From Pyrinomonadaceae bacterium (GTDB lineage Bacteria > Acidobacteriota > Blastocatellia > Pyrinomonadales > Pyrinomonadaceae), in the NCBI GenBank assembly GCA_035644995.1, contig DASQNL010000652.1, forward strand, positions 1 to 15,898: 15,898 bases of DNA, given 5' to 3'. The notes beneath the pieces are model-generated. The model did no database searches. It saw only the letters and a program-made list of their open reading frames with translations, and had not been told where the DNA came from. The translations under genes were made by a program, and so were the position numbers. This document shows positions 1-14,704 of this stretch, one piece after another; position 1 is the stretch's first letter, and every line of letters begins with the position of its first letter.

Positions 1-46
1 TTGCTCAAGCGTTGCTGTTTAAGAACGGGTTTCGTATCGTAGAGAC

Positions 47-118
47 GGCAGATGAGCAAGTAGAGTGCGATAAGTTTAGTTTCCACAAAACCATCTTATC
101 CCTCATTGCTCATCTGCC
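47..118. repeat. 13-bp perfect inverted repeat (GGCAGATGAGCAA 47-59 / TTGCTCATCTGCC 106-118) separated by 46 nt, upstream of the TPR gene
   Basis: Read directly from the sequence. The arms are exact reverse complements. Function is unknown. Confidence 0.6.
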
Positions 119-238
119 TCCTCTACTCCTGATTCGCATAATCTATTGCAACTCATGCTTTCGCGTCCGGCATTAAGCCGAGATACGGAGTCGTTATGAC
201 AAACCGTGACACCCTGGAATGCTGTGCGGAGGCCTTAG

Positions 239-877
239 ATGGGGTTCCTGAACGCCCTTAAATTACGTAACCGGAGCGAAGCGGCGGAAGATGAATCCGG
301 TAAACCGTCCCTCGTCTCTGTACACAGTGCCCGACAACATTATGAGGCGGGCATGGCGCTGGCCGGGCAGGGCTTATACCGGGAAGCGATAGAAGCGTTT
401 CAACAGGCGACTTTGAAACAGCCGCACGACGCCAAGTTACATTACCATCAAGGCCGAATGTATGACATGCTCGGCCGGGTAGATAAGGCGCTGGTATGTT
501 ACGAGCAAGCCGTCCGGTTGAAGGCCGACTATATAGAGGCCTGTAACGATTTAGGGGTCGTCTACAGCAAACTCGGGCGCAATGTTGAGGCGATAACACT
601 ATTTCACAAGACGCTGCGACAGAGTCCCGGCTATGTAGAGGCGCTCAATAATCTAGGGGTTGCATATTACAATTGGGGCAGTTACGCCGAGGCCATTAAA
701 GCCTGCCGCAAGGCCATTCAGATTAACCGGGCTTATCCAAATTCCTATTATTTACTGGGTCTCATCTATATTGATCTGAAGGATAAAGAGATGGCTCTCG
801 AAGCTCAGCGAACGCTTCAGGAACTTGACCCCGAAACGTCGCGTCAATTATTGGAGCAGATTTACAAACAATTCTAG
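239..877 (+). CDS. Tetratricopeptide (TPR) repeat protein, 212 aa
   Basis: GGAGG (228-232) lies 6 nt before the ATG. The translation shows several tandem ~34-aa TPR-like units, e.g. AIEAFQQATLKQPHDAKLHYHQGRMY, ALVCYEQAVRLKADYIEACNDLGVVY, AITLFHKTLRQSPGYVEALNNLGVAY, AIKACRKAIQINRAYPNSYYLLGLIY. G+C is lower than in the fad region. Confidence 0.85.
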   Translation: MGFLNALKLRNRSEAAEDESGKPSLVSVHSARQHYEAGMALAGQGLYREAIEAFQQATLKQPHDAKLHYHQGRMYDMLGRVDKALVCYEQAVRLKADYIEACNDLGVVYSKLGRNVEAITLFHKTLRQSPGYVEALNNLGVAYYNWGSYAEAIKACRKAIQINRAYPNSYYLLGLIYIDLKDKEMALEAQRTLQELDPETSRQLLEQIYKQF

Positions 878-896
878 CCCCTGACATCAAGTTTGA

Positions 897-1431
897 AGCG
901 CAGTCAGCCTCCCGTTGGCCGACGCCGGCGCGCGCCTCGACCTCAGGCGGACGCTCTCCGAGCATGCGCTTGCCGGCGAGCCGTCCGCGGCTATCGTAAG
1001 CTCCGTAGCGCTCACGTCGCCGCTTGCGCGCGCCGCGCAGGTGGAGGTGGAGCGTCCCGCCCTGTCGCTTGTCACGCCAGACGTGGCGGTAGATCGTCTC
1101 GTGGCTGATTGAAAGCCGCCCCAGGCGGGCGAGGCGGGCGGCGACTTGCTCAGGACTCCACAGCCGACAGAGCAGTTCGTCCATCGGCGCGAAGTCCTCC
1201 GCCGAGAAACGGCTGTCGCGGCGTGAGCGTGCGCGGCGGCCGTTCGTCCTTTCCTGTGCCGTAGTGGCGCGGTAGCAGCCGTCAGTCCGGGTGCTGTTGC
1301 GGCTGAGTTCACGGCAGATGGTGGAGCGGTGGCGACCGGGCGCGCGTGCGATCTGTGATTGGTTGTAGCCTTGCCTTACTGAGCGCGGCGAGCATATCTC
1401 TCTCCTCGGGGGAGAGCCGGCGGTACGTCAT
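897..1431 (-). pseudogene. IS30-family transposase remnant, N-terminal part only, frameshifted and 3'-truncated
   Basis: The minus-strand ATG at 1431 reads MTYRRLSPEERDMLAALSK and then terminates. After a 1-nt frame change near 1375-1385 the reading continues as QGYNQSQIARAPGRHRSTICRELSRNS...WSPEQVAARL...ISHETIYRHVW...ERPPEVEARAGVGQREAD. These are the HTH and linker motifs typical of IS30 transposases. No DDE catalytic core follows. Similarity and high G+C stop at about 897, only ~20 bp from the TPR stop codon. The left boundary is approximate. Confidence 0.75.
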
Positions 1432-1731
1432 GACATAAGACCTCTTCGTGTTGGTTGGAGTCTTAGTCAGTATTGCGGCTCACCTCCACTTGAGGGAAGC
1501 CTGTTGCACTTAGTATATGAATCCGCGAGTGATAACTCACCCTTCGGCATCGTTTGGCAGAGAGAGCGCGCCGAAGACGCGTTCGAGGTCAGACCGCCTC
1601 ATTTTGTTTGTCGCAGGTGACCAAGTCATGCTTCTTTTCATCCCTGGGGGTTGTGAACGTATCGCATTTAAACGCTGATAACTCCCGCCACTCCTGCTCA
1701 AGAACCGATGGAAACTGTTTCAAAGTGTCAG

Positions 1732-1860
1732 TTCGTGCATAAAGTGCGAATTCCCGCCACCAACTATCAACAACTTACAGTAATAATTCGCTCATAAAGC
1801 GAGAAATTATTCGTGCATAAAGTGCGAAAATGCATTACTTTTCGTGCATAAAGTGAGAAT
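1732..1860 (+). repeat. Cluster of four 20-bp direct repeats, consensus TTCGTGCATAAAGTGCGAAW, upstream of the SWIM gene
   Basis: Copies: 1732-1751 TTCGTGCATAAAGTGCGAAT, 1787-1806 TTCGCTCATAAAGCGAGAAA, 1810-1829 TTCGTGCATAAAGTGCGAAA, 1841-1860 TTCGTGCATAAAGTGAGAAT. All are in the same orientation. Each has a TTCG...CGAA/AGAA outer dyad. Confidence 0.8.
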
Positions 1861-1910
1861 TAGCCGGGAAGTAAACAAAATAGAAATTTGTGGTTCCCTG
1901 TAGAGGTTGC

Positions 1911-2909
1911 ATGGCTGAGGGAAAGTTGCCCCGGCTGACCGAGGCGCACATACGTAATCTTGCCGTTGCGCCGAGCTTCGAGCGCGGCCAAGCCTACTAT
2001 CGTGACGGAGCAGTTCTAGACCCTATCTGCCAAGAGTCCAGCCTGCGCGCCCAGTGTGAAGGCTCAGACTATGAGCCGTATCAGGTCAGTGCGACGCTCG
2101 GCAAAGGCGGCATCGCAGAAACTTCCTGCACCTGTCCTTATGACTATGGCGGCATCTGCAAGCACATCGTCGCCCTGCTGCTGACATACATACACAAACC
2201 ACAGTCATTCCGTTTCATACCGCCACTCGGCAAGTTGCTCGCCAGGCGCAGCCAAGAGGAACTCATCACCCTCATCGGCGAGATGATCAAGATAGAGCCA
2301 GAATTGCTGTCGCTGGTCGAACTCTCTATCGCAACCGAAGAAGCCCGGCAAGACCAGCCGTTGGATGTGACAGCGTATCGCCGTCAGGCGCGGCGGGCGC
2401 TGCGACACGAGCACCTGCACATGGTAGAGAAAGAATTGCGAGCGTTACGAGAACTGGCCGCCCGTTCGGCTAAGGCTGACAACTGGCTGAACGCAGGCGC
2501 GATCTATCACGCGGTTCTCGACGAGACGGTTCGCGGCTACGAAGACCTATTGTGGGAGATGGATGAGGACGGCGAGATCGCCGTCCTGATTGACGAGTTC
2601 GCGCTGGGGTTGAGCCAGTCTCTCAAGAAAAGTAAGGCCGACGACCAGACGCGCCGGGCGTGGCTGGGGGCGCTCTTGGAGGCTGAACTGGCCGACATCA
2701 AAATGGGCGGAATTGACCTCGCGCCGAGCGCCCGCGAGGCGGTTTTAGAACACGCCGATGATGAGGAGTGGGGGTGGATTGAGAAGCGTCTCGAAACTGC
2801 TATCTCGAAGTGCCGCGACTGGGGACGGGAAGCGCTGGTGAGGTTTTTATCTGCGGGGCAGAAGCGGCACGGGCGCGCAGGTGAAAGCAAAACAGCCCGA
2901 AAGAGATGA
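1911..2909 (+). CDS. SWIM zinc-finger domain protein
   Basis: The CxCx(n)CxH SWIM signature is in TSCTCPYDYGGICKHIVALLL. The rest is helical and acidic. I prefer the ATG at 1911 (GAGG 1903-1906 upstream) to the GTG at 1890 listed in the ORF track. Confidence 0.8.
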   Translation: MAEGKLPRLTEAHIRNLAVAPSFERGQAYYRDGAVLDPICQESSLRAQCEGSDYEPYQVSATLGKGGIAETSCTCPYDYGGICKHIVALLLTYIHKPQSFRFIPPLGKLLARRSQEELITLIGEMIKIEPELLSLVELSIATEEARQDQPLDVTAYRRQARRALRHEHLHMVEKELRALRELAARSAKADNWLNAGAIYHAVLDETVRGYEDLLWEMDEDGEIAVLIDEFALGLSQSLKKSKADDQTRRAWLGALLEAELADIKMGGIDLAPSAREAVLEHADDEEWGWIEKRLETAISKCRDWGREALVRFLSAGQKRHGRAGESKTARKR

Positions 2910-2961
2910 TCAAGCAGGAAGCAAACCGCATCACGGAACGGACACAACAGGCAGAGATGAA

Positions 2962-3477
2962 ATGGAACAGAACGACCGACAGGAAACGCTAAAGGCAGCC
3001 CTTCATTATTTTTATCGGGATAACTCAAGGTCTGGCTCACATTGCCGCTACAGCCTGCAATATCACCTCGTCTGGATTCCGAAATACCGCCGAAGTTTCT
3101 TGGTTGGTGAGATAGCCGAGAGGCTGAAACAGATACTCAAAGAGATTGCCCATGATTATCGTATTCACATTATCGCCATGGAGGCGATGCCCGTCCACGT
3201 TCATATGCTGGTTGAAGCACCGCCCAAATATGCGCCTGCAAAGATCGTTCAACTTTTCAAAGGCATCTCGTCGAGGAGGCTCAGGCGGGAATTTCTCGAC
3301 CTGATAAAGAGGTACATCTGGAAAGAAGGAACTCTGTGGGCAATCGGCTACTACATCGGCAGCGTGAGCGATAAAGTCTCAACGGAACTTGTAAAGAAAT
3401 ACATCAGGAATCAGAAGTCGAAAGATGAAAAACTGAAACAACAAACAGAATATGTTCAGGCAAGCCTTTTCGGTTAA
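2962..3477 (+). CDS. tnpA: IS200/IS605-family Y1 (HUH) transposase TnpA
   Basis: Hallmark motifs are present: YSLQYHLVWIPKYRR, the HUH motif in PVHVHMLVEAPPKY, and a C-terminal helix with the catalytic Tyr region LWAIGYYIGSVSDKVSTELVKKYIRNQ. I placed the start at the first ATG (2962). The GTG at 2881 in the track would overlap the SWIM gene and has no SD. Confidence 0.85.
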   Translation: MEQNDRQETLKAALHYFYRDNSRSGSHCRYSLQYHLVWIPKYRRSFLVGEIAERLKQILKEIAHDYRIHIIAMEAMPVHVHMLVEAPPKYAPAKIVQLFKGISSRRLRREFLDLIKRYIWKEGTLWAIGYYIGSVSDKVSTELVKKYIRNQKSKDEKLKQQTEYVQASLFG

Positions 3478-3516
3478 GGCGTGTGTCAACATCCATTTAA
3501 GGCGTTATGTTTGCGC

Positions 3517-3545
3517 TTGCTGAATGAATGCTCATTCAGTATGAT
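3517..3545 (+). promoter_or_regulatory. Candidate sigma70-type promoter of the fad operon with a palindromic operator in the spacer
   Basis: TTGCTG (3517-3522), a 17-nt spacer, then TATGAT (3540-3545). The spacer holds the perfect dyad CTGAATGA-ATGC-TCATTCAG (3520-3539). The site is 45 nt upstream of the fadN ATG, with RBS GGAGAAAGG at 3571-3579. The dyad could instead be a tnpA terminator or an IS200 end hairpin. Confidence 0.4.
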
Positions 3546-3589
3546 ATGTGGCCTCTCGCACGAGACTTTTGGAGAAAGGTTCTTCCCCT

Positions 3590-6001
3590 ATGCTTCGGAT
3601 CGAACGAGCGGCGGTGCTGGGCGCGGGTACGATGGGCGCGCAGATCGCCGCGCACCTGGCGAACGCCGGAATTCCCGTCCTCTTGCTGGACATCGCGCCG
3701 CGCGAACTCACGCCCGATGAACAGGCCAAAGGCTTGACCCTCGACGCGCGCGCCGTGCGCAACCGCATCGCGCAGGCCGGACTCGACGCGGCGAAGCGCG
3801 CGAAGCCCGCCGCCTTCTTCACCACGGACGCGGCTGCGCTCGTCGCGGTCGGGAATTTTGAAGACGACATGGCGCGTCTGAAAGATTGCGATCTGGTCAT
3901 CGAAGCGGTCGTCGAGAATCTGGAGATCAAGCGAAAGCTCTACGCGCAGGTTGAGCAGCACCGGCGCGCTTCGTCGGTCATCGCGTCGAACACGAGCGGC
4001 ATCCCCATCCGCGCCATCGCCGAAGGGTTCTCGGAAGACTTTCGCGCGCACTTCCTCGGCATACACTTCTTCAATCCGCCGCGCTACCTCCACTTGTGCG
4101 AACTGATCCCGACCGAATGGACGCGCGCGGAGGTGGCCTGCGCCGTCTTCGGCTTCCTCGATCAAAGACTCGGCAAGGGCGTCGTCATTGCGAAGGATCG
4201 CCCGAACTTCATCGCCAACCGCATCGGCACTTACGGCGCGCTCGTCTCGATCAAGACGATGCTCGAAGACGGCTACACCATCGAAGAAGTTGACCGGATG
4301 ACGGGGCAGGCCGTCGGTCGCCCGAAGTCGGCCACCTTCCGCACGTTCGACATCGTCGGCCTTGACGTGTTCGCGCACGTCGCGCGTAATCTCTACGAGG
4401 CCGTACCCGAAGACGAGGAGCGCGAGGTGTTCGTCGCGCCGGAATTTTTGCAAGGGATGATCGGGCGCGGCATCCTCGGCAACAAGACGAAAGGCGGCTT
4501 CTACCGCAAGCAAAAAGGCGAGGGCGAGAAACAGGAAATCTGGACGCTCGACCACGCCTCGCTCGAATATCGCCCCGCCGAGAAAGTTAAACTGCCCGCG
4601 CTGGAGATGGCGAAAAACGTGGAAGACGTGGGCGAGCGCATCAAGGCTCTCGTCTGGTCGCGGGATCGCGTCGGCGCGTTTTTGTGGAAGACCATCTCAC
4701 GCACTCTGCGCTACGCGGCGAACCGCATCCCGGAGATCGCGAACAACGTGGTGGACGTTGACCGCGCGATGCGCTGGGGCTTCAACTGGGAACTCGGCGT
4801 CTTCGAGACGTGGGACGCCATCGGTGTTGAGAAGTCGGTCGCGCGCATGCGCGAGGAAGGCGCGGCCGTTCCCGCGAACGTGGAGCGAATGCTTGAGGCG
4901 GGCGCGCATAGTTTTTACCGGACGGAGGGGGGCGCGCGTTTCTATTTCGATTTCGATAAACTCGACTACCAGCCGTTGAACGAACCGGCGGGCGTGCTCG
5001 TCTTGAAGTCGGTTAAGGATCGCACGGGCGTGGTGAAGAAGAACGCGGGCGCGTCTTTGATCGACATCGGCGACGGCGTGGCGTGTCTGGAATTTCATTC
5101 CAAGATGAACGCCATCGGCGGCGATACGATCCAGATGCTCAAGTGGTCGCTCGCCGAAGTGGAGCGAAACTTCGTCGGCTTAGTGGTCGGCAATCAGGCG
5201 CAGTATTTCTCGGTCGGCGCGAACCTGATGCTCATCCTTTTGGAAGCGCAGGAGGAGAACTGGGAAGACATCGATTTGATGGTGCGCGAGTTTCAACGCG
5301 CGACGATGAGTTTGCGCTATTCGTCGAAGCCGGTCGTCGTCGCGCCGTTCGGCCTCGTGCCCGGCGGCGGCTGCGAGGTGACGATTCACGGCGACCGCAT
5401 CCGCGCTTCGGCCGAGTTGTACATCGGTCTGGTCGAGGCGGGCGTCGGCGTCATCCCGGCGGGCGGCGGGACGAAGGAGATGCTCATGCGCGCGCTCGAT
5501 TCGATCCCGAAGGGGATGGACGACGCAGACCCGTTCCCGTTCGTCAAACGCGCCTTCGAGACGATTGCGCTGGCGCGTGTCGCCACGTCGGCCGGAGAGG
5601 CGCGGCAGTTGGGCTTCCTGCGCGACGAGGATTCCGTCACGATGAACCCGGATCGTCTCATCGCCGACGCCAAACAGGACGTGCTCGCGCTCGCGCGCGG
5701 CGGCTACACCGAACCGCAGCCGCGCACGGACATCCTCGCGCTCGGAAACCCCGCGCTCGCCACTCTGAAACTCGGCATCCACCAGATGAAACGCGGCGGC
5801 TTCATCTCCGACTACGACGCGCACATCGGCGAACGGCTCGCGCGCATCCTGACGGGCGGCGATCTCAACCACCCGACGCGCGTCAGCGAACAATACCTGC
5901 TCGACCTCGAACGCGAGGCGTTCCTCTCGCTCTGCGGCCAACGCAAGACGCAGGAGCGCATGGCGGCCATGCTCAAGACCGGCAAGCCGCTCAGGAATTA
6001 G
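3590..6001 (+). CDS. fadN: Bifunctional 3-hydroxyacyl-CoA dehydrogenase / enoyl-CoA hydratase (FadN-type, dehydrogenase domain first)
   Basis: The N-terminus carries a Rossmann motif, AAVLGAGTMGAQIAAHLANAGIPVLLLDI. The 3HCDH core is VIEAVVENLEIKRKLY...SNTSGIPI...HFFNPPRYLHLCELIP. The C-terminal half has a crotonase fold (LEFHSKMNAIGGD...VVAPFGLVPGGGCEV...GLVEAGVGVIPAGGGT). I took the start at ATG 3590 behind the GGAGAAAGG RBS rather than 3548. Confidence 0.93.
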   Translation: MLRIERAAVLGAGTMGAQIAAHLANAGIPVLLLDIAPRELTPDEQAKGLTLDARAVRNRIAQAGLDAAKRAKPAAFFTTDAAALVAVGNFEDDMARLKDCDLVIEAVVENLEIKRKLYAQVEQHRRASSVIASNTSGIPIRAIAEGFSEDFRAHFLGIHFFNPPRYLHLCELIPTEWTRAEVACAVFGFLDQRLGKGVVIAKDRPNFIANRIGTYGALVSIKTMLEDGYTIEEVDRMTGQAVGRPKSATFRTFDIVGLDVFAHVARNLYEAVPEDEEREVFVAPEFLQGMIGRGILGNKTKGGFYRKQKGEGEKQEIWTLDHASLEYRPAEKVKLPALEMAKNVEDVGERIKALVWSRDRVGAFLWKTISRTLRYAANRIPEIANNVVDVDRAMRWGFNWELGVFETWDAIGVEKSVARMREEGAAVPANVERMLEAGAHSFYRTEGGARFYFDFDKLDYQPLNEPAGVLVLKSVKDRTGVVKKNAGASLIDIGDGVACLEFHSKMNAIGGDTIQMLKWSLAEVERNFVGLVVGNQAQYFSVGANLMLILLEAQEENWEDIDLMVREFQRATMSLRYSSKPVVVAPFGLVPGGGCEVTIHGDRIRASAELYIGLVEAGVGVIPAGGGTKEMLMRALDSIPKGMDDADPFPFVKRAFETIALARVATSAGEARQLGFLRDEDSVTMNPDRLIADAKQDVLALARGGYTEPQPRTDILALGNPALATLKLGIHQMKRGGFISDYDAHIGERLARILTGGDLNHPTRVSEQYLLDLEREAFLSLCGQRKTQERMAAMLKTGKPLRN

Positions 6002-6082
6002 TTTCAGGTTTCAGGTTTCAGGTTTCAGGACTGACGGGTTCTTCCTGCTGTAACCTGAAACTTGAAACTCGAAACTTGAAAC
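6001..6082 (+). repeat. Heptamer-array hairpin element, copy 1: (GTTTCAG)x4, 26-nt loop, CTGAAAC TTGAAAC TCGAAAC TTGAAAC
   Basis: Read directly: left array 6001-6028 (four perfect units), loop 6029-6054 (GACTGACGGGTTCTTCCTGCTGTAAC), right array 6055-6082. The first G of the element is the G of the fadN TAG stop codon. Confidence 0.9.
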
Positions 6083-6087
6083 CCGCT

Positions 6088-6561
6088 ATGGATTACCCTG
6101 TGACGCCCGCCGTGAGGTTGCTGCGGGAGCGCAAAATAGAGTTTGAGCCGCACCTCTACGCTTACGAGGAGCGCGGCGGCACGCGCCACTCGGCCGCCGC
6201 GCTCGGCGTGGACGAGCACGCGGTCGTCAAGACGCTCGTGATGGAGACGGAGGCGCGCAAACCGCTCATCGTCCTGATGCACGGCGACCGCGAAGTCTCG
6301 ACGAAGAACCTGGCGCGCGTCATAGGCGCAAAGAGCGTGCAGCCGTGCGACCCGGCAAAGGCGCAGAAGCACACGGGCTACCTCGTCGGCGGCACAAGCC
6401 CCCTGGGGACGCGCACACGGCTGCCCGTCTACGTCGAGCGCACGATCTTCGCGTTGCCGAAGATTTACCTCAACGGCGGCAAGCGCGGCTTTCTCGTCGG
6501 GATTGAGCCGAACGTTTTGCATGAGTTATTGTCAGCCGAAGAAGTTGAAGTAGCCATCTAG
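6088..6561 (+). CDS. ybaK: Cys-tRNA(Pro)/Cys-tRNA(Cys) deacylase, YbaK/EbsC family, 157 aa
   Basis: The translation MDYPVTPAVRLLRERKIEFEPHLYAYEE...AVVKTLVME...LIVLMHGDREVSTKNLAR...HTGYLVGGTSPLG...PVYVERTIFALPKIYLNGGKRGFLVGIEP matches the YbaK family layout. The listed ORF from 5083 is read-through of the fadN 3' end in another frame. Confidence 0.87.
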   Translation: MDYPVTPAVRLLRERKIEFEPHLYAYEERGGTRHSAAALGVDEHAVVKTLVMETEARKPLIVLMHGDREVSTKNLARVIGAKSVQPCDPAKAQKHTGYLVGGTSPLGTRTRLPVYVERTIFALPKIYLNGGKRGFLVGIEPNVLHELLSAEEVEVAI

Positions 6562-6577
6562 GGACGCGAGGTGCGAG

Positions 6578-6835
6578 ATGCAGAATATTTACAAGCGCCC
6601 GCTGGTATTAGAACCGCAACCGGAAGGCGGCTACACGATTACCTGCCCGCTTTTGCCTGAATTGATTACCGAGGCTGACACGTTGGATGAGGTGATGACA
6701 AACGTCTCGGATGCTCTGGCGGCGGTAATCGAATCTTATGTAGACACGAAGCAGCCTTTGCCGGAGATTCTCAAACCGTTGAATCCCAACTCGCCGTTGT
6801 GGACGGAGACGCTCGTGTCTGTGAAAGCGGCATGA
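6578..6835 (+). CDS. hicB: HicB-family antitoxin (UPF0150-type, no obvious DNA-binding domain), 85 aa
   Basis: EPQPEGGYTITCPLLPELITEADTLDEVMTNVSDALAAVIESY is the typical HicB/UPF0150 RNase H-like fold signature. GAGGTG RBS lies upstream. Its TGA overlaps the ATG of the next gene (ATGA). Confidence 0.8.
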   Translation: MQNIYKRPLVLEPQPEGGYTITCPLLPELITEADTLDEVMTNVSDALAAVIESYVDTKQPLPEILKPLNPNSPLWTETLVSVKAA

Positions 6836-7044
6836 ACTACAGGGAAGTGGCGGCGAAACTGCGTGCGCTCGGTTGCGTAGAGATTCCGCGCCGGAGCGGC
6901 GGGTCACACCGGAAATGGCACAACCCGCGGAAGCAAAAGATCGCGCCCGTGCCGGATTGGGGTAACAAAAGCCTGAAACTCGGAACCATCCGCGCTATCG
7001 TGCGGCAACCGGATTTAGATTGGGAGGCATTCAAAAATGCCTGA
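6832..7044 (+). CDS. hicA: HicA-family mRNA interferase toxin, 70 aa
   Basis: The translation MNYREVAAKLRALGCVEIPRRSGGSHRKWHNP...PVPDWGNKSLKLGTIRAIVRQ carries the HicA GSH motif and dsRBD-like layout. I placed the start at ATG 6832, overlapping the hicB stop by 4 nt, not at 6799. Confidence 0.85.
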   Translation: MNYREVAAKLRALGCVEIPRRSGGSHRKWHNPRKQKIAPVPDWGNKSLKLGTIRAIVRQPDLDWEAFKNA

Positions 7045-7082
7045 GCAGATAGTTTGAGGAAGTTTTACCGGAAGGAAGAATT

Positions 7083-8267
7083 ATGAGAGACGCAGTGATC
7101 GTATCGGCGGTGAGGACGGCGGTGGGGAAAGCGCCGAAGGGGACTTTGCGCGACACGCGGCCGGACGAGATGGGCGCGGCCGTGATTCAGGAAGCGTTGC
7201 GGCGCGCCGAGGGCGTCGAGTTGAACGAGGTCGAAGACGTGATCATGGGCTGCGCGATGCCGGAGGCGGAGCAGGGCATGAACGTGGCGCGGGCGGCGGC
7301 GATTCGCGCGGGGCTGCCGGTGGAAACTTCGGCGATGACGATCAACCGCTTCTGCTCGTCGGGGCTGCAATCAATCGCGATTGCGGCCGACCGCATCAGA
7401 ACCGGCGCGGCCGACGTGATCGTGGCAGGGGGCTTGGAGACGATGTCGCTCATCCCGATGGGCGGCCACACCATCAGGCCGAACCCTTACCTCGTCGAAC
7501 ACTACCCGGACTTTTATCTGAACATGGGACTCGCCACCGAGAACGTCGCGCGCAAGTATGAAGTGTCGCGCGCGGAGCAGGACGAGTTCTCCTATCAGTC
7601 GCACAGCCGCGCGGCGGCGGCGCAGGACGCGGGCAAGTTCGACGACGAGATCGTGCCGCTCAAAATCGTGTTTGAAGAGTTGGACGAGCGCGGGCGTAAA
7701 CAGCGGCGCGAGGCGACGTTCGAGCGCGACGAGGGCGTGAGGCGCGACACTTCGGCGGAGAGCCTGTCGAAGTTGCGGCCGGCGTTTCACGCGCAGGGGA
7801 CGATCACGGCGGGCAACGCGTCGCAGATGTCGGACGGGGCGGCGGCCGTGGTCGTGATGTCCGGCGAGCGAGCGCGCGCTTTGGGCTTGAGGCTGATGGC
7901 GCGCTTCGTGGCCTACGCCACCGCCGGATGCCCGCCCGAAGAGATGGGCATCGGGCCGGTCTACGCGATTCCGAAGGTCTTGAAGATCGCGGGGCTGACG
8001 CAAGATCAAATCGACGTGATCGAACTCAACGAAGCCTTCGCCGCGCAATCGCTCGCCGTCATCCGCACGCTCTCGCTCGACCCGGAAAAAGTGAACGTCA
8101 ACGGCGGAGCCATCGCGCTCGGCCACCCGCTCGGCTGCACGGGCGCGAAGCTGACCGCGACCGCCCTGCGCGAACTCGCACGCCGCGGCGGCCGCTACGC
8201 GATGGTGACGATGTGCGTCGGCGGCGGCATGGGCGCGGCGGGCATTTTCGAGAGGCTCGAAAATTAG
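7083..8267 (+). CDS. fadA: Acetyl-CoA C-acyltransferase (3-ketoacyl-CoA thiolase), 394 aa
   Basis: The N-terminus [20 protein letters not shown] is classic. The active-site Cys region is [13 protein letters not shown]-terminal motifs are [25 protein letters not shown] and [17 protein letters not shown] is GGAAGGAAG. Confidence 0.95.
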
Positions 8268-8347
8268 TTTCAGGTTTCGAGTTTCAAGTTTCAGGACTGA
8301 GGTTCCGAGGCTTTCAAACTTGAAACTTGAAACCTGAAACTTGAAAC
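8267..8347 (+). repeat. Heptamer-array hairpin element, copy 2: GTTTCAG GTTTCGA GTTTCAA GTTTCAG, 25-nt loop, TTGAAAC TTGAAAC CTGAAAC TTGAAAC
   Basis: Read directly: left array 8267-8294, loop 8295-8319 (GACTGAGGTTCCGAGGCTTTCAAAC), right array 8320-8347. The first G is the G of the fadA TAG stop codon. Confidence 0.9.
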
Positions 8348-8373
8348 TTTATTCCGACTTAAAGGAGCAAATT

Positions 8374-10152
8374 ATGTCAGCCGTGGTCGAAGAGAAAAAG
8401 ATAATCGCGGGCGGCAGCTTCCTCATCGAGGAGCGCACGCCGGAAGAGGTGTTCACGCCGGAGGATTTCACGGACGAGCACCGCATGATCGCGGAGACGA
8501 CGCGCGAGTTCATGGACAATGAAGTGCGCCCGGCGACGGACGAGTTGGAGCGGCACAACTGGCAACTCGCGCGCGAGTTGATCCGCAAGTCGGCGGAGTT
8601 GGGGATGGTCGGCGTCAACATTCCCGAAGAATACGGCGGCCTCGGACTCGACCAGACGAGCGGCGCGATTGTCGGCGAACTGCTCGGACGCTCGGCCAGT
8701 TTTGCGACGACGCTCGGCGCGCAGAGCGGCATCGGCCTGACGCCCATCCTCTACTTCGGCACGGAAGCGGCGAAGCAAAAGTACTTGCCGCGCATCGCTT
8801 CGGGCGAGATGGTGTCGGCTTACGCGTTGACGGAAGCCGGGTCGGGTTCGGACGCGATGGCGGCCAAAGCCACGGCGCGCCTCAGCGCGGACGGCACGCA
8901 CTACATCTTGAACGGCGAGAAGATGTGGATCACGAACGGCGGCTTCGCCGACGTGTTCATCGTCTTCGCCAAGCTCGACGGCGACAAGTTCAGCGGCTTC
9001 ATCGTCGAACGGCAGGAAGGACTGACGAACGGCGCGGACGAGCACAAGATGGGCATCAAAGGATCGAGCACGACCGCGCTCATCCTGTCGGATGCGAAAA
9101 CGCCGGTGGAGAACCTGCTTGGCGAGGAAGGACGCGGCGCGAAGATCGCGTTCAATATTTTGAACATCGGCCGCTTCAAGCTGGGCGCGATGTGTAGCGG
9201 CGGGATGAAGTTGATGCTGCACGAGGCGGTGCGCTACGCGAACGAGCGGCAACAGTTCGGCCGCCCGATCTCTTCGTTCGGCGCGATCAAGTCGAAGCTG
9301 GCGGAGATGGCGATCAGGACGTGGGTGGGCGAGTCGATGGTCTACCGGACGCTCGGCCTCATCGAAACGGCGACGAGCGGCGAGACGGAGGCGGAGGCCA
9401 AACTGCGCGGCATCGAGGAGTATGCGGCGGAGTGTTCGATCATCAAGGTCGCGCTCTCCGAGTATTGCGATTTCGTCGCCGACGAGATGGTGCAGATTTA
9501 CGGCGGCTACGGCTACTCGGCCGACTATCCGGCCGAGCGCGCCTACCGCGACTCGCGCATCAACCGCATCTTCGAGGGCACGAACGAGATCAATCGCATG
9601 TTGATTCCCGGTCGCATGATGAAAAGCGCAATGTCGGGGCGGCTCGCGCTCCTGCCCGCCGCGCAGAAGTTGATGGACGAAGTGTTGTCGCCGTCGCTCG
9701 CGTCGTTTGAAGAGGACGAGGGCGTGCTCGCCGCCGAGATGAAACTCGCGCGGAACGCGAAGAAGGTCGCGCTGATGACTCTGGGCACGGCGGCGCAGAA
9801 GTACATGGCGAAACTCGCCGACGAGCAGGAGATTCTGATGGGCGTGGCGGACATCACGATGGACGTGTACGCGATGGAATCGGCCATCCTGCGCGCGCAG
9901 AAACTCGCGGCGAAGCGGGGCGAAACGGCCGCCGCGCGTTACATCGAGATGGTGCAGGTCTTCTGCAACGACGCCGTGCAACGCATCGAAGCGCGCGCCA
10001 AGAACACGCTCGCCGCCATGAGCGAAGGCGACGAACTGCGGACGCTCCTCGCCGCCCTGCGCCGCTTCACCAAGCAGACCCCGGTCAACACGGTCGCCGC
10101 CCGTCAGGCGATAGCCGACGTGCTGATCAAGGCGAACAAGTACGCCTACTGA
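8374..10152 (+). CDS. fadE: Acyl-CoA dehydrogenase, long form with C-terminal extension (FadE-type), ~592 aa
   Basis: ACAD N-terminal, middle and C-terminal domains are recognisable (YALTEAGSGSDA, MWITNGGFADVFIVFAK, QFGRPISSFGAIKSKLAEM, QIYGGYGYSADYPAERAYRDSRINRIFEGTNEINR). I took the start at ATG 8374 behind AAAGGAG (8361-8367). The TTG at 8341 lies inside the heptamer array. Confidence 0.93.
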   Translation: MSAVVEEKKIIAGGSFLIEERTPEEVFTPEDFTDEHRMIAETTREFMDNEVRPATDELERHNWQLARELIRKSAELGMVGVNIPEEYGGLGLDQTSGAIVGELLGRSASFATTLGAQSGIGLTPILYFGTEAAKQKYLPRIASGEMVSAYALTEAGSGSDAMAAKATARLSADGTHYILNGEKMWITNGGFADVFIVFAKLDGDKFSGFIVERQEGLTNGADEHKMGIKGSSTTALILSDAKTPVENLLGEEGRGAKIAFNILNIGRFKLGAMCSGGMKLMLHEAVRYANERQQFGRPISSFGAIKSKLAEMAIRTWVGESMVYRTLGLIETATSGETEAEAKLRGIEEYAAECSIIKVALSEYCDFVADEMVQIYGGYGYSADYPAERAYRDSRINRIFEGTNEINRMLIPGRMMKSAMSGRLALLPAAQKLMDEVLSPSLASFEEDEGVLAAEMKLARNAKKVALMTLGTAAQKYMAKLADEQEILMGVADITMDVYAMESAILRAQKLAAKRGETAAARYIEMVQVFCNDAVQRIEARAKNTLAAMSEGDELRTLLAALRRFTKQTPVNTVAARQAIADVLIKANKYAY

Positions 10153-10156
10153 AAAG

Positions 10157-10191
10157 CGGAAGACAGGAGACAGAAAACAGGAGTCAGAATG
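10157..10191 (+). repeat. Left heptamer array flanking the four-helix-bundle gene: CGGAAGA CAGGAGA CAGAAAA CAGGAGT CAGAATG
   Basis: Period-7 pattern read directly. The fourth unit provides the AGGAG Shine-Dalgarno and the fifth unit contains the ATG (10189). Confidence 0.8.
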
Positions 10192-10557
10192 GAACGTTTG
10201 CCTGCGCGTACTTTTCAAGACTTGATCGTGTGGCAGAAAGCGCACGAGTTTGTTTTGGGGGCGTACCACCTGAGTAAAAACTTTCCGCGAGAAGAGCTTT
10301 ATGGCCTGACTTCGCAATTCAGGCGTGCCGCCGTTTCGATACCGGCGAATATCGCGGAGGGTTTCAAGAAGAAAGGCTCTAGTGATAAGGCGCGGTTCAT
10401 GAACATCGCACAAGGCTCTTTAGAAGAATGTCGCTATTACCTGATCCTGACAAACGATCTTGGCTACGGCGATACAAGACAACACATGCAGCAACTTGAA
10501 GAGGTCAGCAAACTTCTCGCGAGTTACATCTCCGCGATTAAAACTTCTGACTTCTGA
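10189..10557 (+). CDS. Four-helix-bundle protein (23S rRNA intervening-sequence protein family; Avd-like), 122 aa
   Basis: Strong family signature: FQDLIVWQKAHEFVLGAYHLSKNFPREELYGLTSQFRRAAVSIPANIAEGFKKK...FMNIAQGSLEECRYYLILTNDLGY. G+C is lower than in the neighbours. Confidence 0.9.
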   Translation: MERLPARTFQDLIVWQKAHEFVLGAYHLSKNFPREELYGLTSQFRRAAVSIPANIAEGFKKKGSSDKARFMNIAQGSLEECRYYLILTNDLGYGDTRQHMQQLEEVSKLLASYISAIKTSDF

Positions 10558-10577
10558 CTTCTGTATCCTGTATTCGC
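10543..10577 (+). repeat. Right heptamer array flanking the four-helix-bundle gene: ACTTCTG ACTTCTG ACTTCTG TATCCTG TATTCGC
   Basis: Read directly. Its reverse complement (GCGAATA CAGGATA CAGAAGT CAGAAGT CAGAAGT) is an imperfect match to the left array. It encodes the last codons (T S D F stop) of the four-helix-bundle gene and ends 1 nt before the MBL ATG. Confidence 0.8.
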
Positions 10578-10578
10578 C

Positions 10579-11544
10579 ATGCGCATCATCCCCATCTCGC
10601 TGCCGACGCCGTTTTACATCGGGCCGGTCAACGTCTACTTGATCGCGGAAGACCCGGTGACATTGATTGACACGGGGCCGAAGACGCCGGAAGCGTTAGA
10701 GGCTCTGCGCGAGGGGTTGAGGCGGGCGCGCTTTCGCGTCTTAGACGTAAAGCGCATCGTCCTGACGCACGCCCACGAGGATCATTGCGGGCTGGCGAAA
10801 CGCCTGCGCGACGAGGCGAAGGATGCGGAAGTGCTCGTCCACGGGTGGGAGACGGGGCATCGCCAGGGGCGTCTCGAATATGAGGAGCACCGCGCGCTGC
10901 TGGTGCGCGCCGGGGTGCCGGGCGAAGAAATCGAGGGGATGCGGCGCATGTATGAGGGCGTGCGCCGGTATGCGGACGCGCTCGAAGACGAGGAACACAA
11001 GGAACTGACGGACAACTCGGAGTTGGAGTTTGAGACCGGCGCGCTGCGCGTGGTGCATACGCCGGGACACACGCCGGGGTCGTGCTCGTTCGTGCGCGAG
11101 GCCGACCGGACGATCATCGCCGGCGACTGCGTGTTGAAACGCGTGACGCCGAACCCGGTGCTCTCGCCCGACCCGGTAGACCCTTCGCGCAGATTTCCGT
11201 CGCTCGCCGAATACCTCGTGAGCCTGGCGCGTTTGCGCGCGTTCGCGCCGACGCTCGTTCACGGCGGGCACGGCGAGGCGGTGGAGGATTTCGAGGAGTT
11301 GTTCACGCGCTACCTGCGGGCGATCCGGGAGCGGCAAGCGGAGGTGGCGCGCCTCGTGCCGAAAACGGGCGCGAGCGCGTGGGAGGTGGCGCGCGAGATG
11401 TTTCCGGGAACGGAGGACGTGCATCGCTTCCTCGCCGTGTCGGAGGTGGTGGCGCATCTCGATCTGGCGCACGCGGAGAATAAACTCGCGTTGGAGATGA
11501 CGGCCGACGGGCGGGAGATTTATCGTAAGTCGGCGGGCGGCTGA
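10579..11544 (+). CDS. MBL-fold metallo-hydrolase, 321 aa
   Basis: The HxHxDH motif is in LTHAHEDHCG. Downstream are VHTPGHTPGS and a GD motif. The N-terminus GPVNVYLI...TLIDTG is typical of beta-lactamase-fold hydrolases. No clear SD, so the start is somewhat uncertain. Confidence 0.85.
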   Translation: MRIIPISLPTPFYIGPVNVYLIAEDPVTLIDTGPKTPEALEALREGLRRARFRVLDVKRIVLTHAHEDHCGLAKRLRDEAKDAEVLVHGWETGHRQGRLEYEEHRALLVRAGVPGEEIEGMRRMYEGVRRYADALEDEEHKELTDNSELEFETGALRVVHTPGHTPGSCSFVREADRTIIAGDCVLKRVTPNPVLSPDPVDPSRRFPSLAEYLVSLARLRAFAPTLVHGGHGEAVEDFEELFTRYLRAIRERQAEVARLVPKTGASAWEVAREMFPGTEDVHRFLAVSEVVAHLDLAHAENKLALEMTADGREIYRKSAGG

Positions 11545-11613
11545 AGAGTGTGCGCGGGCGCGCGATGCCGCCGCAGGCTCAGATCGAAGCGGCGCAAACG
11601 CGAGTTGAAATTA

Positions 11614-11658
11614 AACCGGCCGCCGTTCGTCAGGTTGAATGACGGACGGCGGCCGGTT
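11614..11658. terminator. Bidirectional intrinsic-terminator-like hairpin between convergent genes
   Basis: AACCGGCCGCCGTTCGTCA (11614-11632), 7-nt loop GGTTGAA, then TGACGGACGGCGGCCGGTT (11640-11658). This is a 19-bp stem with one T/G position. On the minus strand it is followed by TTTAATTTC. On the plus strand it is followed by CGGTTT, a weaker U-tract. Confidence 0.6.
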
Positions 11659-11729
11659 CGGTTTAGCGGAAAAGCCCTGCGGCGTTCCGGCGGATGAGAA
11701 TGCGGGCGGGCGTTAGCGCGCCGCCGCGT

Positions 11730-13664
11730 CTATTGGTTGCCCTTGGCAACGCGGCTTTTGCTGCGCGTCGCCTGAGCCTTGGTGGCGCTGACGGGCGGAG
11801 CCGGAACCGCCGTCAGGGCTTCGACGTTGACGAAGAAGCGGAACGAGCCGTTCTGTTCCACGCCAAGCAGGAACTGCAAGTTGACGCTCGCGCCCGCCGG
11901 AAGCTGATTAGCCAGCGTGACGGTACCGGCCGAGAGCGTGGAGTTGAAGCCGCCGCCGTTCGGTTGGCCGAGCGCGTCCGTTTCAAGCGTGGTGCCCTGG
12001 ATAGTGGTCTGCGGGCTGGCGTTGTCGGAGCAGAGGTGCGGCGTGCCGTTCTCACTCTGGCAGGTCGCAGTGATAGACGAAGAAGTGATCGCCCGCAGGT
12101 CGGCCGTGCCCAACAGCGAGGGGAAGGTGGTGATGTCCACGATGCGGAAGCGCAGGCGGGTCACGCTCGCGCCCGTGTTGTTGGTGAAGCGGCGGCGGAT
12201 CGAGAGCGTGCCCGTCGAAGTGGGAGACGAGCCGAAGCCCGAACCCGCATTCGTGCGACGCTCGAAGCGGCACGCGCTCGGCAGCGCCGGGTTGACGGCG
12301 ATGCCGGTGCATTGCGTGTCCACGAGCGACGCCTTGATCTCGGCGTTGCGCTGCGTGGGCGACGAGAGATTTTCGGGGCCGGGCGCGCCGAGCCGCTGGC
12401 ACCGGAAGTTAATCGTCGAGCTGCACAAGTTCGTGCCGTTGATGTCGGCGGTCTGGAAGTCCGTCTCGTTGTTATTGGTGTCGAGCGGCATGCCGCTCTG
12501 CGCGTTGCGGAAGAGGCTGAAGTTGACGCCGGGGTTCCCACTCAGGACAGCCGAGAACGGGGGGTAGCCCGTGCCTTCGACGTAAATGGGGTTGGTCTCG
12601 GCGGTCGAGCCGACGGCGTCGAGGCGGTTGGCGAGCGTGAAACTCGCCTGAACCGACGTGTTGAAAATGGCGATCCCGGCGTTCGCGGGGATGTTCTCGT
12701 TCAGGGTGTTGTCGCCCGTGGCCGTCGTGCCGTTGCCCGCCGGGTACGCGCTGCCGCTGAAAGAGCCGGTGCATGCGCCGCCGCCGTTATTGACGGCGAG
12801 ATAGTGGCCGCGCGCCGGGATGTTCGTGCCGTTCGGGATAGTGAACAACACGTTGCCGTTCGAGTGCGCGACGGCAAAGCCGGTCGTGCCGGCTTCGAGC
12901 GACTGCACCGTGAATGTGCTGTTCGACGGGTTGTAAATCTCGACGAACTCGTCGCACGTGCCGGTCGGCCCGAAGGTGCGGAACTCGCTGATCAGAAGCA
13001 TCGTTCCGGTGAGCGAATTGCGCGGGGTCGGAGCGGCGGCGGTGAAATCCAGATTGTTGTTATCGGTGTCCACGCTGCCGCCGCCGTTACGAATATCGGC
13101 GGTGGTGGTCGAGGGGGCGGGCGCGGGGCCTGCCCCTTCAAAGCAGTTGGCGGTCGAGCCGTAGCCGACGAAGTCTCTGACCTGTGAGGGAGTGGCCGGG
13201 CAGCCGGCCGCCGTCAGCGTGACCGGGGTGGTGGTGTTGGCGAGAAAAACTTTGCCCGCCGTCGCGCTCATGGCTATCGTGCCGGTCGTGTTCGGCGTCG
13301 GGAGCGCGAGCGTGCCGTTCGCGCTGAATGACTCGGCGACCAGATAATACTGTCCCGGTTGGAGCGTGAAGTTCGTCAGCGGTGTGATCGCGCTCGCGGC
13401 GTTGGCGATTGTCGTGCCCGTGGCGGAGCTGTATTGCACCGAGAGGCCGTTCAGCGAAACGGGGGTCGTGCCCCGGTTGTAGATTTCGATGAAGTCGTTT
13501 TTGTAAGTGGAGCAGTTGGCCGTGCCGCACCCCGCCCCGCCGTAAATCTGGCTGATGACGAGATCGGGGCTGCCCTGTGCATAGGCAACTTGCGAAGCCG
13601 AGAACGCGAAGCCCAGCGCGAGCGTCGCGAGAGCAAAAGTATAGAATCTACGAAGGGGTTGCAT
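11730..13664 (-). CDS. Secreted protein with two lamin-tail-domain (LTD) modules and an uncharacterised C-terminal domain, 644 aa
   Basis: A signal peptide ends ..ASQVAYAQG. LTD 1 (LVISQIYGGAGCG...YKNDFIEIYNRGTTPVSLNGLSVQYSSATG...DFVGYGSTANCFEGAGPAP...DTDNNNLDF) resembles the N-terminal module of ExeM/NucH-type extracellular nucleases. LTD 2 reads LLISEFRTFGP...DEFVEIYNPSN...DTNNNETDF. AGGAGA RBS is on the minus strand (13672-13679). Confidence 0.85.
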   Translation of the reverse strand: MQPLRRFYTFALATLALGFAFSASQVAYAQGSPDLVISQIYGGAGCGTANCSTYKNDFIEIYNRGTTPVSLNGLSVQYSSATGTTIANAASAITPLTNFTLQPGQYYLVAESFSANGTLALPTPNTTGTIAMSATAGKVFLANTTTPVTLTAAGCPATPSQVRDFVGYGSTANCFEGAGPAPAPSTTTADIRNGGGSVDTDNNNLDFTAAAPTPRNSLTGTMLLISEFRTFGPTGTCDEFVEIYNPSNSTFTVQSLEAGTTGFAVAHSNGNVLFTIPNGTNIPARGHYLAVNNGGGACTGSFSGSAYPAGNGTTATGDNTLNENIPANAGIAIFNTSVQASFTLANRLDAVGSTAETNPIYVEGTGYPPFSAVLSGNPGVNFSLFRNAQSGMPLDTNNNETDFQTADINGTNLCSSTINFRCQRLGAPGPENLSSPTQRNAEIKASLVDTQCTGIAVNPALPSACRFERRTNAGSGFGSSPTSTGTLSIRRRFTNNTGASVTRLRFRIVDITTFPSLLGTADLRAITSSSITATCQSENGTPHLCSDNASPQTTIQGTTLETDALGQPNGGGFNSTLSAGTVTLANQLPAGASVNLQFLLGVEQNGSFRFFVNVEALTAVPAPPVSATKAQATRSKSRVAKGNQ

Positions 13665-14029
13665 TGAAACAATTCTCCTGAGAAAGTTTGGCAGTTGAAA
13701 TGGAAAGTTGCCTAAGAGCAGCTTGTGGCCTGGTTCGTCGTTTGTGTTCGCGCGTGGGCGGGAGTCGTTTAACTAACGCCTTGTGATTCGGATCGCTGCT
13801 TAAATAAAATTCGGTGGAAACGAATTTCCATAGGCGTTGCGAGAATAAGACAGACGGCCGCGCGCGGTCAACTCTAACGCCCCGTGTTTCTGTTAAATCT
13901 TTTACCCGAACCCACCGCCCGCGCACGCCGCCGTCGCCTCAGCGCGTTTCGCCGCCTGCTGAAACTTTTTGCTCCCGCCTTCCATCTACCATACCAGTAA
14001 GAACGCGCACGCGCGGGCGGCGCGGCCGA

Positions 14030-14575: not shown

Positions 14576-14704
14576 CGCGGAGAAATTAACCCAAGTGCGC
14601 GTGCCCGCGCAAAATACGGGCGCGTTCGCGCGGCGCAAAATTTTCGGAACCACGCGGCCTGCGCCTCGTGAAATTGCCAGAAATCTCTCTCGGAGGATTG
14701 ATTT

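Follow-up and report, generated by a model that had tools for sequence, protein, structure and literature searches.

What kind of element is the hairpin of tandem heptamers that fills the gap between fadN and ybaK at positions 6001-6082 of contig DASQNL010000652.1, and what keeps it there? The contig, a metagenome contig of a Pyrinomonadaceae bacterium (assembly GCA_035644995.1) that we analyzed over its positions 1 to 15,898 (15,898 nt; hereinafter the window), codes for a thiolase 91–97% identical to those of Pyrinomonadaceae metagenome-assembled genomes (MAGs). We propose that the hairpin is a member, lacking an open reading frame (ORF), of a class of cassettes resembling the intervening sequences (IVSs) of 23S rRNA, that it is dispersed, fast-turnover DNA residing in operon gaps, and that it may be cut by RNase III in mRNA; taken as a whole, this is probably the best explanation of the locus. 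The narrower assignment of 6001-6082 to the heptamer-stemmed, IVS-like cassettes we regard as very likely. These selfish-looking cassettes, a very large class that occurs in many phyla, terminate on both sides in about three to five tandem heptamers, the two arrays being inverted relative to each other, and their full-length members hold one small gene for a four-helix-bundle protein of the PF05635/TIGR02436 family; the heptamer-stemmed 23S rRNA IVS is the first-described special case of the class.

A first-pass annotation made from the sequence alone had described the element as four tandem GTTTCAG units separated by a 26-nt loop from four inverted ones, with the potential for a 28-bp stem, and on re-reading 6001-6082 this is exactly the architecture that we find (Table 1). 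The left arm begins on the final G of the fadN TAG stop codon (5999-6001), while the right arm is followed by CCGCT, which runs, as had been stated, directly into the ybaK ATG 5 nt downstream, at 6088, with no U-tract; no Shine-Dalgarno sequence is evident between the hairpin and this ATG. The 4 + 4 units yield a nearly perfect stem of about 28 bp, and the predicted RNA fold has a minimum free energy of −45.3 kcal/mol as against −20.6 ± 3.1 kcal/mol in 200 shuffles, none of which is as low (z = −7.97). Both arrays are detected by Tandem Repeats Finder (TRF), and the repeat finder pairs the arms in several registers (reported as I5, I6 and I9), as the annotation had anticipated; its observation that the element is AT-richer than its context agrees with a GC content of 0.44 for the hairpin and 0.61 for the window. 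The hairpin thus has the paired arms of a heptamer-stemmed cassette, i.e., inverted heptamer arrays forming at least about 20 bp, but its 26-nt loop contains no ORF and encloses no cargo gene.

The element (hereinafter copy 1) is not solitary. A second hairpin, built from the same unit and with a loop (GACTGAGGTTC...) related to that of copy 1, occupies 8267-8347, in the gap between the thiolase and acyl-CoA dehydrogenase (ACAD) genes (copy 2). Its left arm begins on the last base of the thiolase TAG stop codon, and its 3′ side is followed by AAGGAG, a Shine-Dalgarno sequence of the host, and then by the ACAD start codon, ATG, at 8374. Across the window, the pattern (GTTTCRR)3 with at most one mismatch has 10 matches as compared to 0.00 expected from 200 shuffles. 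In searches of Rfam 15, the window at E ≤ 1 returns only chance-level microRNA-hairpin matches below the gathering score, and no family covers the hairpins of 15 related loci; a terminator and promoter scan likewise makes no call at either copy.

The heptamer period itself is a distinguishing feature. Counting hairpins formed of two inverted tandem arrays over 1.22 Mb of 80 fad loci, which were picked regardless of repeats, we recover 42 of period 7 as compared to 3, 1, 1, 1 and 0 of periods 5, 6, 8, 9 and 10, respectively, and 0 in shuffled sequence. Arrays of periods 5 and 6 are as common in these loci as those of period 7, yet are almost never found in hairpins. The period-7 hairpins comprise 28 distinct units, with most arms having 3–5 of them, and the spacing of paired arrays over all fetched loci has modes at 10–30 nt and 400–700 nt. 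Of 202 short heptamer hairpins, about 58% have an ORF end within 12 nt on one side and an ORF start within 40 nt on the other, both ORFs being on the same strand. The ORF ends that abut hairpins use TAG in 36% of cases as against a background of 23% (odds ratio 1.9, p = 0.006, in loci with GC ≥ 0.5), a difference that is suggestive only. We also observe that many arrays start on the pattern TAG followed by T, including both copies in the window (AATTAG followed by TTTCAGG).

The link to a specific protein family comes from the genes that such arrays enclose. The window itself has a gene-bearing cassette at 10159-10575, whose 122-aa product is a PF05635/TIGR02436 four-helix-bundle protein (“23S rRNA intervening-sequence protein”) related to that of PDB 2GSC, which was deposited with five chains, and weakly to Avd, the accessory protein of diversity-generating retroelements. 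The Shine-Dalgarno sequence of this cargo gene sits inside the left array of the cassette, while the right array overlaps its final codons and stop and, in the fold prediction, base-pairs with the left one. The first-pass annotation had suggested that copy 1 might be the gene-less counterpart of this cassette (drawn there as 10157-10577). The two indeed belong to the same class; however, the cassette has units of the CAGRAGA/TCTTCTG family, unlike the GTTTCAR of the hairpins, and a protein of another subfamily, and copy 1 is not its gene-less form.

Among the fad-operon loci, 24 genes code for IVS proteins, and nearly all of them lie between inverted heptamer arrays: the subfamily of about 160 aa is accompanied by GAGATCT/GAGATTT units and that of about 122 aa, which includes the window protein, by units of the CAGRAGA/CAGAATA type. 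Arrays of GTTTCAR also flank PF05635/TIGR02436 genes, namely at L048/L204, L218, L222, L229, L221 and L237 (L numbers label fetched genome loci), and therefore we take the hairpin to be the gene-less form of that subfamily. We extended this comparison to 80 relatives of the L048 protein (52–100% identity, at least 12 phyla). Nearly all of their genes have arrays of GTTTCAR, GTTTCTG, GTTCAAR, GTCCAAR, GTTGCGA and similar units upstream and reverse-complement arrays downstream, with the stop codon often within the array; 80 relatives of Xanthomonas XCC0516 show the same flanking pattern with many further units. When one strict detector is applied to all three gene samples and to random 400-nt segments, at least one flanking array is found for 74 of the 80 L048-type genes, 64 of the 80 XCC0516-type genes and 23 of the 24 genes of the earlier loci, with a matched inverted pair for 55/80, 32/80 and 10/24, respectively. 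Over the three samples and many phyla this amounts to 80–96% of genes with a flanking array and 40–69% with a matched pair, as compared to an array on about 7% of sides and a matched pair in 1 of 2000 random segments. Moreover, the distance between units grows with the distance between the proteins (Spearman 0.32, permutation p = 5e-4), which indicates that the arrays travel with the gene.

Two further cases connect gene-bearing and bare forms. At L168, GAGATCT arrays surround only the C-terminal third of a subfamily-B gene; this locus marks an intermediate stage in the decay of a full cassette to a bare hairpin, in another unit family than GTTTCAR. In Xanthomonas and Pseudoxanthomonas, an IVS-protein gene (a relative of XCC0516, PDB 2GSC; L284, L285) lies between accB and accC and is flanked by GGGAATC/GGGAATA-type units, making Xanthomonas a second, independent case of a gene-bearing cassette alongside many gene-less arrays of the same unit. 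As a separate observation, XCC0516-type four-helix-bundle genes are also present in Methanophagales archaea (L344, L360) and in MAGs of the candidate phyla radiation (L318, L319, L341), with short repeated flanking units visible by eye in several. Literature searches on PF05635, heptamer/heptanucleotide hairpins, intervening-sequence proteins and small dispersed repeats, including the STRR heptamers of cyanobacteria, found, in the library searched, no paper linking heptamer hairpins in operons to the four-helix-bundle gene.

How widely is the GTTTCAR hairpin itself distributed? The genome-wide pattern search that the first-pass annotation had proposed, run as (GTTTCRR)3-N10-40-(YYGAAAC)3 with one genome per species, recovers at least 120 loci across phyla, so the element is not confined to the loci of the window. 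The matches listed comprise 36 Pyrinomonadaceae, 27 other Acidobacteriota, 39 Flavobacterium/Flavobacteriaceae, 5 Bacteroidales, 3 Cytophagales and 10 other taxa, among them Chloroflexota, Planctomycetota, Verrucomicrobiota, Chlamydiota and Desulfobacterota, and a single MAG can have at least 5–8 copies. The copies of Pyrinomonadaceae have a common loop motif, GTTAAAGA...CTCAGWC or its reverse complement, the latter being the orientation found in copy 1; they are therefore related by descent rather than independently made. Some copies are nested (L053, L122, L127), and on the L048 contig 3 kb separates a GTTTCAR hairpin without a gene from a gene flanked by GTTTCAR arrays.

Two observations on other operons and repeats emerged from the same loci. 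In the Flavobacteriaceae L025 (4206-7545) and L004, a trp operon with a match to the Bacteroid-trp leader has GTTTCAR arrays or hairpins at successive junctions, and the same arrays also flank a 135-aa gene, the product of which we presume from its look to be acetyltransferase-like. At L005 (5013-5399), a long pair of GTGAGCR arrays surrounds a central palindrome as well as two matches, in inverted arrangement, to Acido-Lenti-1 of Rfam, i.e., one repeat family is nested in a heptamer hairpin.

The behavior of the element over short evolutionary distances is apparent from a comparison of 80 related fad operons. Their gene order, FadN-(YbaK)-(HicBA)-thiolase-ACAD-(IVS protein)-MBL, is conserved and their intergenic gaps are not. 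The gap from fadN to ybaK contains a GTTTCAR hairpin in the window, L125, L127 and L130; in L128 and L131, whose FadN proteins are 90–94% identical, a hairpin of GGAGTCT/CAGGAGT units is found at the same position, in L129 one of GTTTTCA units, and in L183 the gap is empty, with a 9-nt spacer. Comparing the filled junctions of the window, L128 and L131 with the empty one of L183 reveals no target-site duplication. From thiolase to ACAD, the six closest genomes have a GTTTCAR hairpin, while L126 (thiolase 96% identical) and several others have one of AGTGAGC units; elsewhere this gap holds other units, palindromes resembling repetitive extragenic palindromic (REP) sequences, an inserted gene of about 180 aa, or empty spacers of 19–36 nt. 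From ACAD to MBL, some heptamer-array hairpin is present in nearly all genomes; in about 13 of them an IVS-protein gene lies within it, in either orientation, and in L137, L139 and L148 the hairpins are gene-less but of the unit type of the window cassette. The number of units per arm also differs among relatives. Thus, the element is dispersed, fast-turnover DNA in the gaps of operons between stop codon and start codon (or Shine-Dalgarno sequence), which may be present, absent or replaced at orthologous junctions, and this turnover marks the fad-operon gaps as hot spots at which a class of elements turns over quickly.

The same junctions harbor other material. ybaK is an accessory insertion in the fad operon, being confined to the closest relatives plus a handful of others, where it is sometimes accompanied by a further gene of about 190 aa (L133-L137, L166) or by a small membrane-protein gene (L125, L127). 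The conserved gene of about 180 aa, of unassigned function (MT.SEVFE.VTGSGSSDFA...WCLIGGLAVNCYVEP...), fills the thiolase to ACAD gap, the site of copy 2 in the window, in at least 10 genomes (L143, L153, L154, L160, L164, L169, L176, L177, L182, L184). Other palindromic repeat families, for example TGTAGGGGCAGGG...CCCTGCCCCTACA, GGAGTGCGGTGAC...GTCACCGC and CCGGAAAGGCATAGCCTTTCCGCACA, are found in fad-operon gaps of L132, L138, L153, L157 and L177-L181. The fad-operon gaps attract several kinds of repeats.

We classify the hairpin as a gene-less derivative or satellite of the cassettes. As part of an operon it would be co-transcribed with the fad genes, and its stem of about 28 bp would then be double-stranded RNA of the kind that RNase III cuts, as with the stem of the Coxiella IVS. 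By that analogy, processing of the hairpin in the fad mRNA seems to us an evenly balanced proposition. Such cleavage would likely fall between fadN and ybaK and between thiolase and ACAD in the polycistronic mRNA, each upstream fragment retaining a 3′ remnant of the stem. The stem would also keep stop and start codons adjacent, which could explain why it is tolerated in tight gaps. As working guesses, the pentameric cargo protein may recognize its cognate heptamer array, and gene-less copies may rely on the cognate protein made elsewhere in the genome. We place low confidence in any specific mechanism of mobility.

A tentative extension of these guesses, which we consider possible but doubtful, is that the cognate pentameric protein docks on the arrays in a sequence-specific manner, each 7-nt unit taking up one subunit, and this would explain the 3–5 units per arm. 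Protein and arrays would then constitute a new type of self-propagating element, with the gene-less hairpins as its non-autonomous satellites, mobilized or maintained in trans. Movement might proceed via RNA excised by RNase III, or via hairpin DNA at replication forks, and the replacement of units at the same junction would represent the homing of new elements into resident hairpins.

Several points weigh against the satellite explanation. By eye, the loop of the gene-less copies does not recognizably resemble the interior ends of GTTTCAR cassettes that bear a gene, and derivation by deletion is shown for the unit family of L168 and not for GTTTCAR. The one contig read from the source genome does not show a cognate GTTTCAR-type gene, and we found no target-site duplication, recombinase or other mobility function. 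Among the matches listed, an IVS-protein gene lies within the fetched 8 kb at only 2 of 120 hairpin loci; the link between hairpin and gene is therefore one of common unit, not of proximity. The correlation of units with proteins could stem from the common descent of linked sequences rather than from recognition, and the proposed RNase III cleavage of the fad mRNA is argued from analogy. A sense-strand test for RNA-level selection is negative, with 114 G·U as compared to 106 A·C mismatches in 106 hairpins of known transcription direction (p = 0.64), and the orientation of the loop relative to transcription is mixed (6 vs. 12). RNA effects are therefore probably a by-product and not the reason for the existence of the element, whose upkeep appears to occur at the DNA level or through recent copying.

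These last results bear directly on the alternative that the hairpin is an RNA element selected by the host, which, through mRNA processing or stabilization or through translational coupling across the stem, would determine how strongly the operon segments are expressed relative to one another, in the manner of the REP sequences and bacterial interspersed mosaic elements (BIMEs) of Escherichia coli. The exact placement between stop and start of co-directional genes, the great stability of the stems, the presence of some hairpin at the same junctions in most relatives and the fact that the Xanthomonas counterparts are mostly transcribed (PMC4692102) would all fit this idea. However, G·U and A·C mismatches are equally frequent on the sense strand and the loops occur in both orientations; at a given junction, close relatives show wholesale replacement of the sequence, or an empty gap; and the same unit recurs in unrelated operons and phyla with a GC content foreign to the host. 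Accordingly, we judge host selection for an RNA function unlikely.

It is improbable, too, that the hairpins arose in place, i.e., as microsatellites expanded by polymerase slippage and then converted to palindromes by hairpin-templated repair, with no mobile family involved. Arm lengths that vary among relatives and a choice of pairing registers are what this process would produce, and work cited in PMC4679880 and PMC4692102 reports that in many bacteria no long simple repeats are commoner than heptamers. Against it, both window copies and dozens of Pyrinomonadaceae copies have the unit and the loop motif in common, in distant phyla one specific protein subfamily is flanked by this same unit, arrays of periods 5 and 6 almost never form hairpins despite being as common as those of period 7, and the unit changes wholesale at one site among relatives that are 90–94% identical.

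We consider very improbable the proposal that a Y1 (IS200/RAYT-type) transposase, such as that encoded at 2881-3477, mobilizes the hairpin as a REP-like element, RAYT being a REP-associated tyrosine transposase. IS200/IS605- and RAYT-type enzymes do act on DNA hairpins, a Y1_Tnp gene lies 2.5 kb upstream of copy 1 and the lack of strand asymmetry fits a DNA-level process. Yet this gene has no heptamer arrays at its flanks, and of the 80 related operons only those of the window and L138 have it, while the hairpins are nearly universal; no Y1 gene was noticed beside the IVS-protein cassettes examined, and the hairpin is without the conserved head sequence of the REP type. Finally, we give very little credence to an intrinsic terminator or attenuator of the type without a U-tract inside the operon, which the strong stem directly 3′ of a stop codon might recall and which the annotation had already discounted in its canonical form: no terminator is called, a stem of 44% GC is followed by CCGCTATG instead of a U-tract, only 5 nt separate the hairpin from the following start codon, the flanking genes belong to one pathway and are still adjacent in 80 genomes, and hairpins occur at successive junctions of the same operon.

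As to established classes of repeats, the first-pass annotation had likened copy 1 to REP/BIME elements or to MITEs (miniature inverted-repeat transposable elements). Being dispersed and structured, it does resemble them. REP/BIME elements and the Correia (nemis) MITEs of Neisseria are abundant extragenic palindromes co-transcribed in operons, as the hairpins here would be; Correia elements are RNase III substrates, and REPs stabilize upstream mRNA. The likeness does not extend further, in that there is no REP consensus, no RAYT gene flanked by copies, no architecture of terminal inverted repeats and target duplication and no transposase-bearing parent, and the arms are heptamers. Hence, REP/BIME is rejected on the tandem-heptamer arms and on the sole Y1 gene (2881-3477) being unflanked and absent from 78 of the 80 related operons, and a classical MITE on the lack of target duplication at filled versus empty junctions and on gene-bearing relatives encoding only the four-helix bundle of about 120 aa. 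Copy 1 is not a 23S rRNA IVS in the strict sense (at the tip of helix 9, 25 or 45), as it lies between protein-coding genes and has no rRNA match in Rfam. It is not a G-quadruplex former of the sort read into the Xanthomonas and Nostoc repeats, which needs at least four runs of at least three G or C, as GTTTCAG has no G-run. An integron attC site, of R''-L''/L'-R' core architecture in a cassette array beside intI, is unlikely: the copies are scattered singly in operon gaps with no integrase nearby, although the loop ends GTTAAAG/CTTTAAC loosely resemble GTTRRRY/RYYYAAC.

Table 1. Features of the two heptamer hairpins, their host genes and the gene-bearing cassette (coordinates of the window).
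Feature	Coordinates	Strand	Detected by
FadN-type 3-hydroxyacyl-CoA dehydrogenase/enoyl-CoA hydratase, upstream of copy 1	3590..6001	+	
Copy 1 left arm: GTTTCAG x4, perfect	6001..6028	+	sequence read, TRF, pattern search
Copy 1 loop, 26 nt: GACTGACGGGTTCTTCCTGCTGTAAC	6029..6054	+	loop comparison among copies
Copy 1 right arm: CTGAAAC TTGAAAC TCGAAAC TTGAAAC	6055..6082	+	sequence read, repeat finder, fold
YbaK-type aminoacyl-tRNA editing domain protein, host or accessory, downstream of copy 1	6088..6561	+	
Thiolase, upstream of copy 2	7083..8267	+	
Copy 2 left arm: GTTTCAG GTTTCGA GTTTCAA GTTTCAG	8267..8294	+	repeat finder, pattern search, fold
Copy 2 loop: GACTGAGGTTCCGAGGCTTTCAAAC	8295..8319	+	
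Copy 2 right arm: TTGAAAC TTGAAAC CTGAAAC TTGAAAC	8320..8347	+	
Acyl-CoA dehydrogenase, between copy 2 and the gene-bearing cassette	8374..10152	+	
Cassette left heptamer array: GAAGACA GGAGACA GAAAACA GGAGTCA	10159..10189	+	
Cargo gene: 122-aa PF05635/TIGR02436 four-helix-bundle protein	10189..10557	+	
Cassette right heptamer array: ACTTCTG x3, TATCCTG, TATTC	10543..10575	+	

Other features of the window deserve mention in their own right. The Y1 transposase gene at 2881-3477 is of the IS200 type and lies just upstream of the fad operon, in a low-GC island at about 2900-3500. A perfect palindrome, CTGAATGA-ATGC-TCATTCAG, is present at 3520-3539, about 50 nt 5′ of the fadN start, and presumably resembles the FadR/TetR-type operators of fatty-acid degradation operons. 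A HicB/HicA toxin-antitoxin pair of lower GC (6578-7044) is inserted between ybaK and the thiolase gene, and among the relatives only L129 has it. An ORF starting at 14705 contains, at 15726-15874 and close to the 3′ end of the window, several GC-rich tandem repeats with periods of 9–18.

Published systems place the hairpin in context. The 23S rRNA IVS of Coxiella has an S23p (PF05635) ORF, and its terminal stem spans 28 bp; its tandem heptamers, GACAGAT/GACAGAA, differ in number among strains, and RNase III cuts this IVS mid-stem in vitro (PMC4990558). The elements described here resemble such S23p/PF05635-encoding IVSs of Coxiella burnetii and Leptospira in their stem of about 28 bp built of tandem heptamers, in the cargo family and in a GC content below that of the host, and the Coxiella unit is close to that of the window cassette. 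Thus, what the first-pass annotation took for an unusual microsatellite-built stem is not peculiar to copy 1; it is a hallmark of the whole class, the published Coxiella IVS included. The differences are that the hairpin lies in an intercistronic gap and not in helix 45 of 23S rRNA, lacks an ORF and has the GTTTCAR unit of another subfamily, and that its cutting by RNase III is a prediction by analogy.

In Xanthomonas, Rehm et al. 2015 reported about 186 GGGAATC arrays, mostly of 4 units, 70–75 of them in close inverted pairs, lying between aligned ORFs and beside or overlapping stop codons; they are mostly transcribed and were read by these authors as G-quadruplex formers (PMC4692102). Their intergenic location, usual 4 units, frequent close inverted pairing, position at stops between co-directional ORFs and copy numbers in the hundreds recur in the hairpins studied here, but GTTTCAG cannot form a G-quadruplex and that study draws no link to the four-helix-bundle gene (PMC4692102). 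In the Geobacter metallireducens genome paper, sites composed of five heptanucleotide repeats (MTYCTGA) occur in inverted pairs, for example between proB and proA; that paper annotates them only as putative regulator-binding sites, with no gene or mobility link proposed (PMC2700814). Their consensus matches the CTTCTGA units of the window cassette. The heptamers of cyanobacteria known as short tandemly repeated repetitive (STRR) sequences and the TAACTGA repeats of Beggiatoaceae are likewise intergenic heptanucleotide arrays near start codons and common to distant phyla, but are described mostly as direct arrays and not as hairpins (PMC4679880).

Here a gene-less member of the IVS-like heptamer cassettes would sit in an mRNA rather than in rRNA. 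In some phyla the hairpins interrupt operons at most junctions, which should matter for operon prediction, for the reading of RNA-seq ends and for metagenome assembly at repeats. More broadly, our results suggest that three things treated separately until now belong to one cassette class, namely the IVSs that fragment 23S rRNA and bear an orphan four-helix-bundle gene, the excess of intergenic heptamers in Xanthomonas, Geobacter, cyanobacteria and others, and the many stand-alone four-helix-bundle genes dispersed over bacterial genomes. If so, the origin and spread of rRNA IVSs would become testable, as would the function of the PF05635/TIGR02436 proteins, relatives of Avd, in the form of binding to a known 7-nt repeat. 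If, in addition, the arrays should prove to be docking sites, the orphan “23S rRNA IVS protein”/Avd-like family would gain a function and the heptamer excess of bacterial genomes an explanation.

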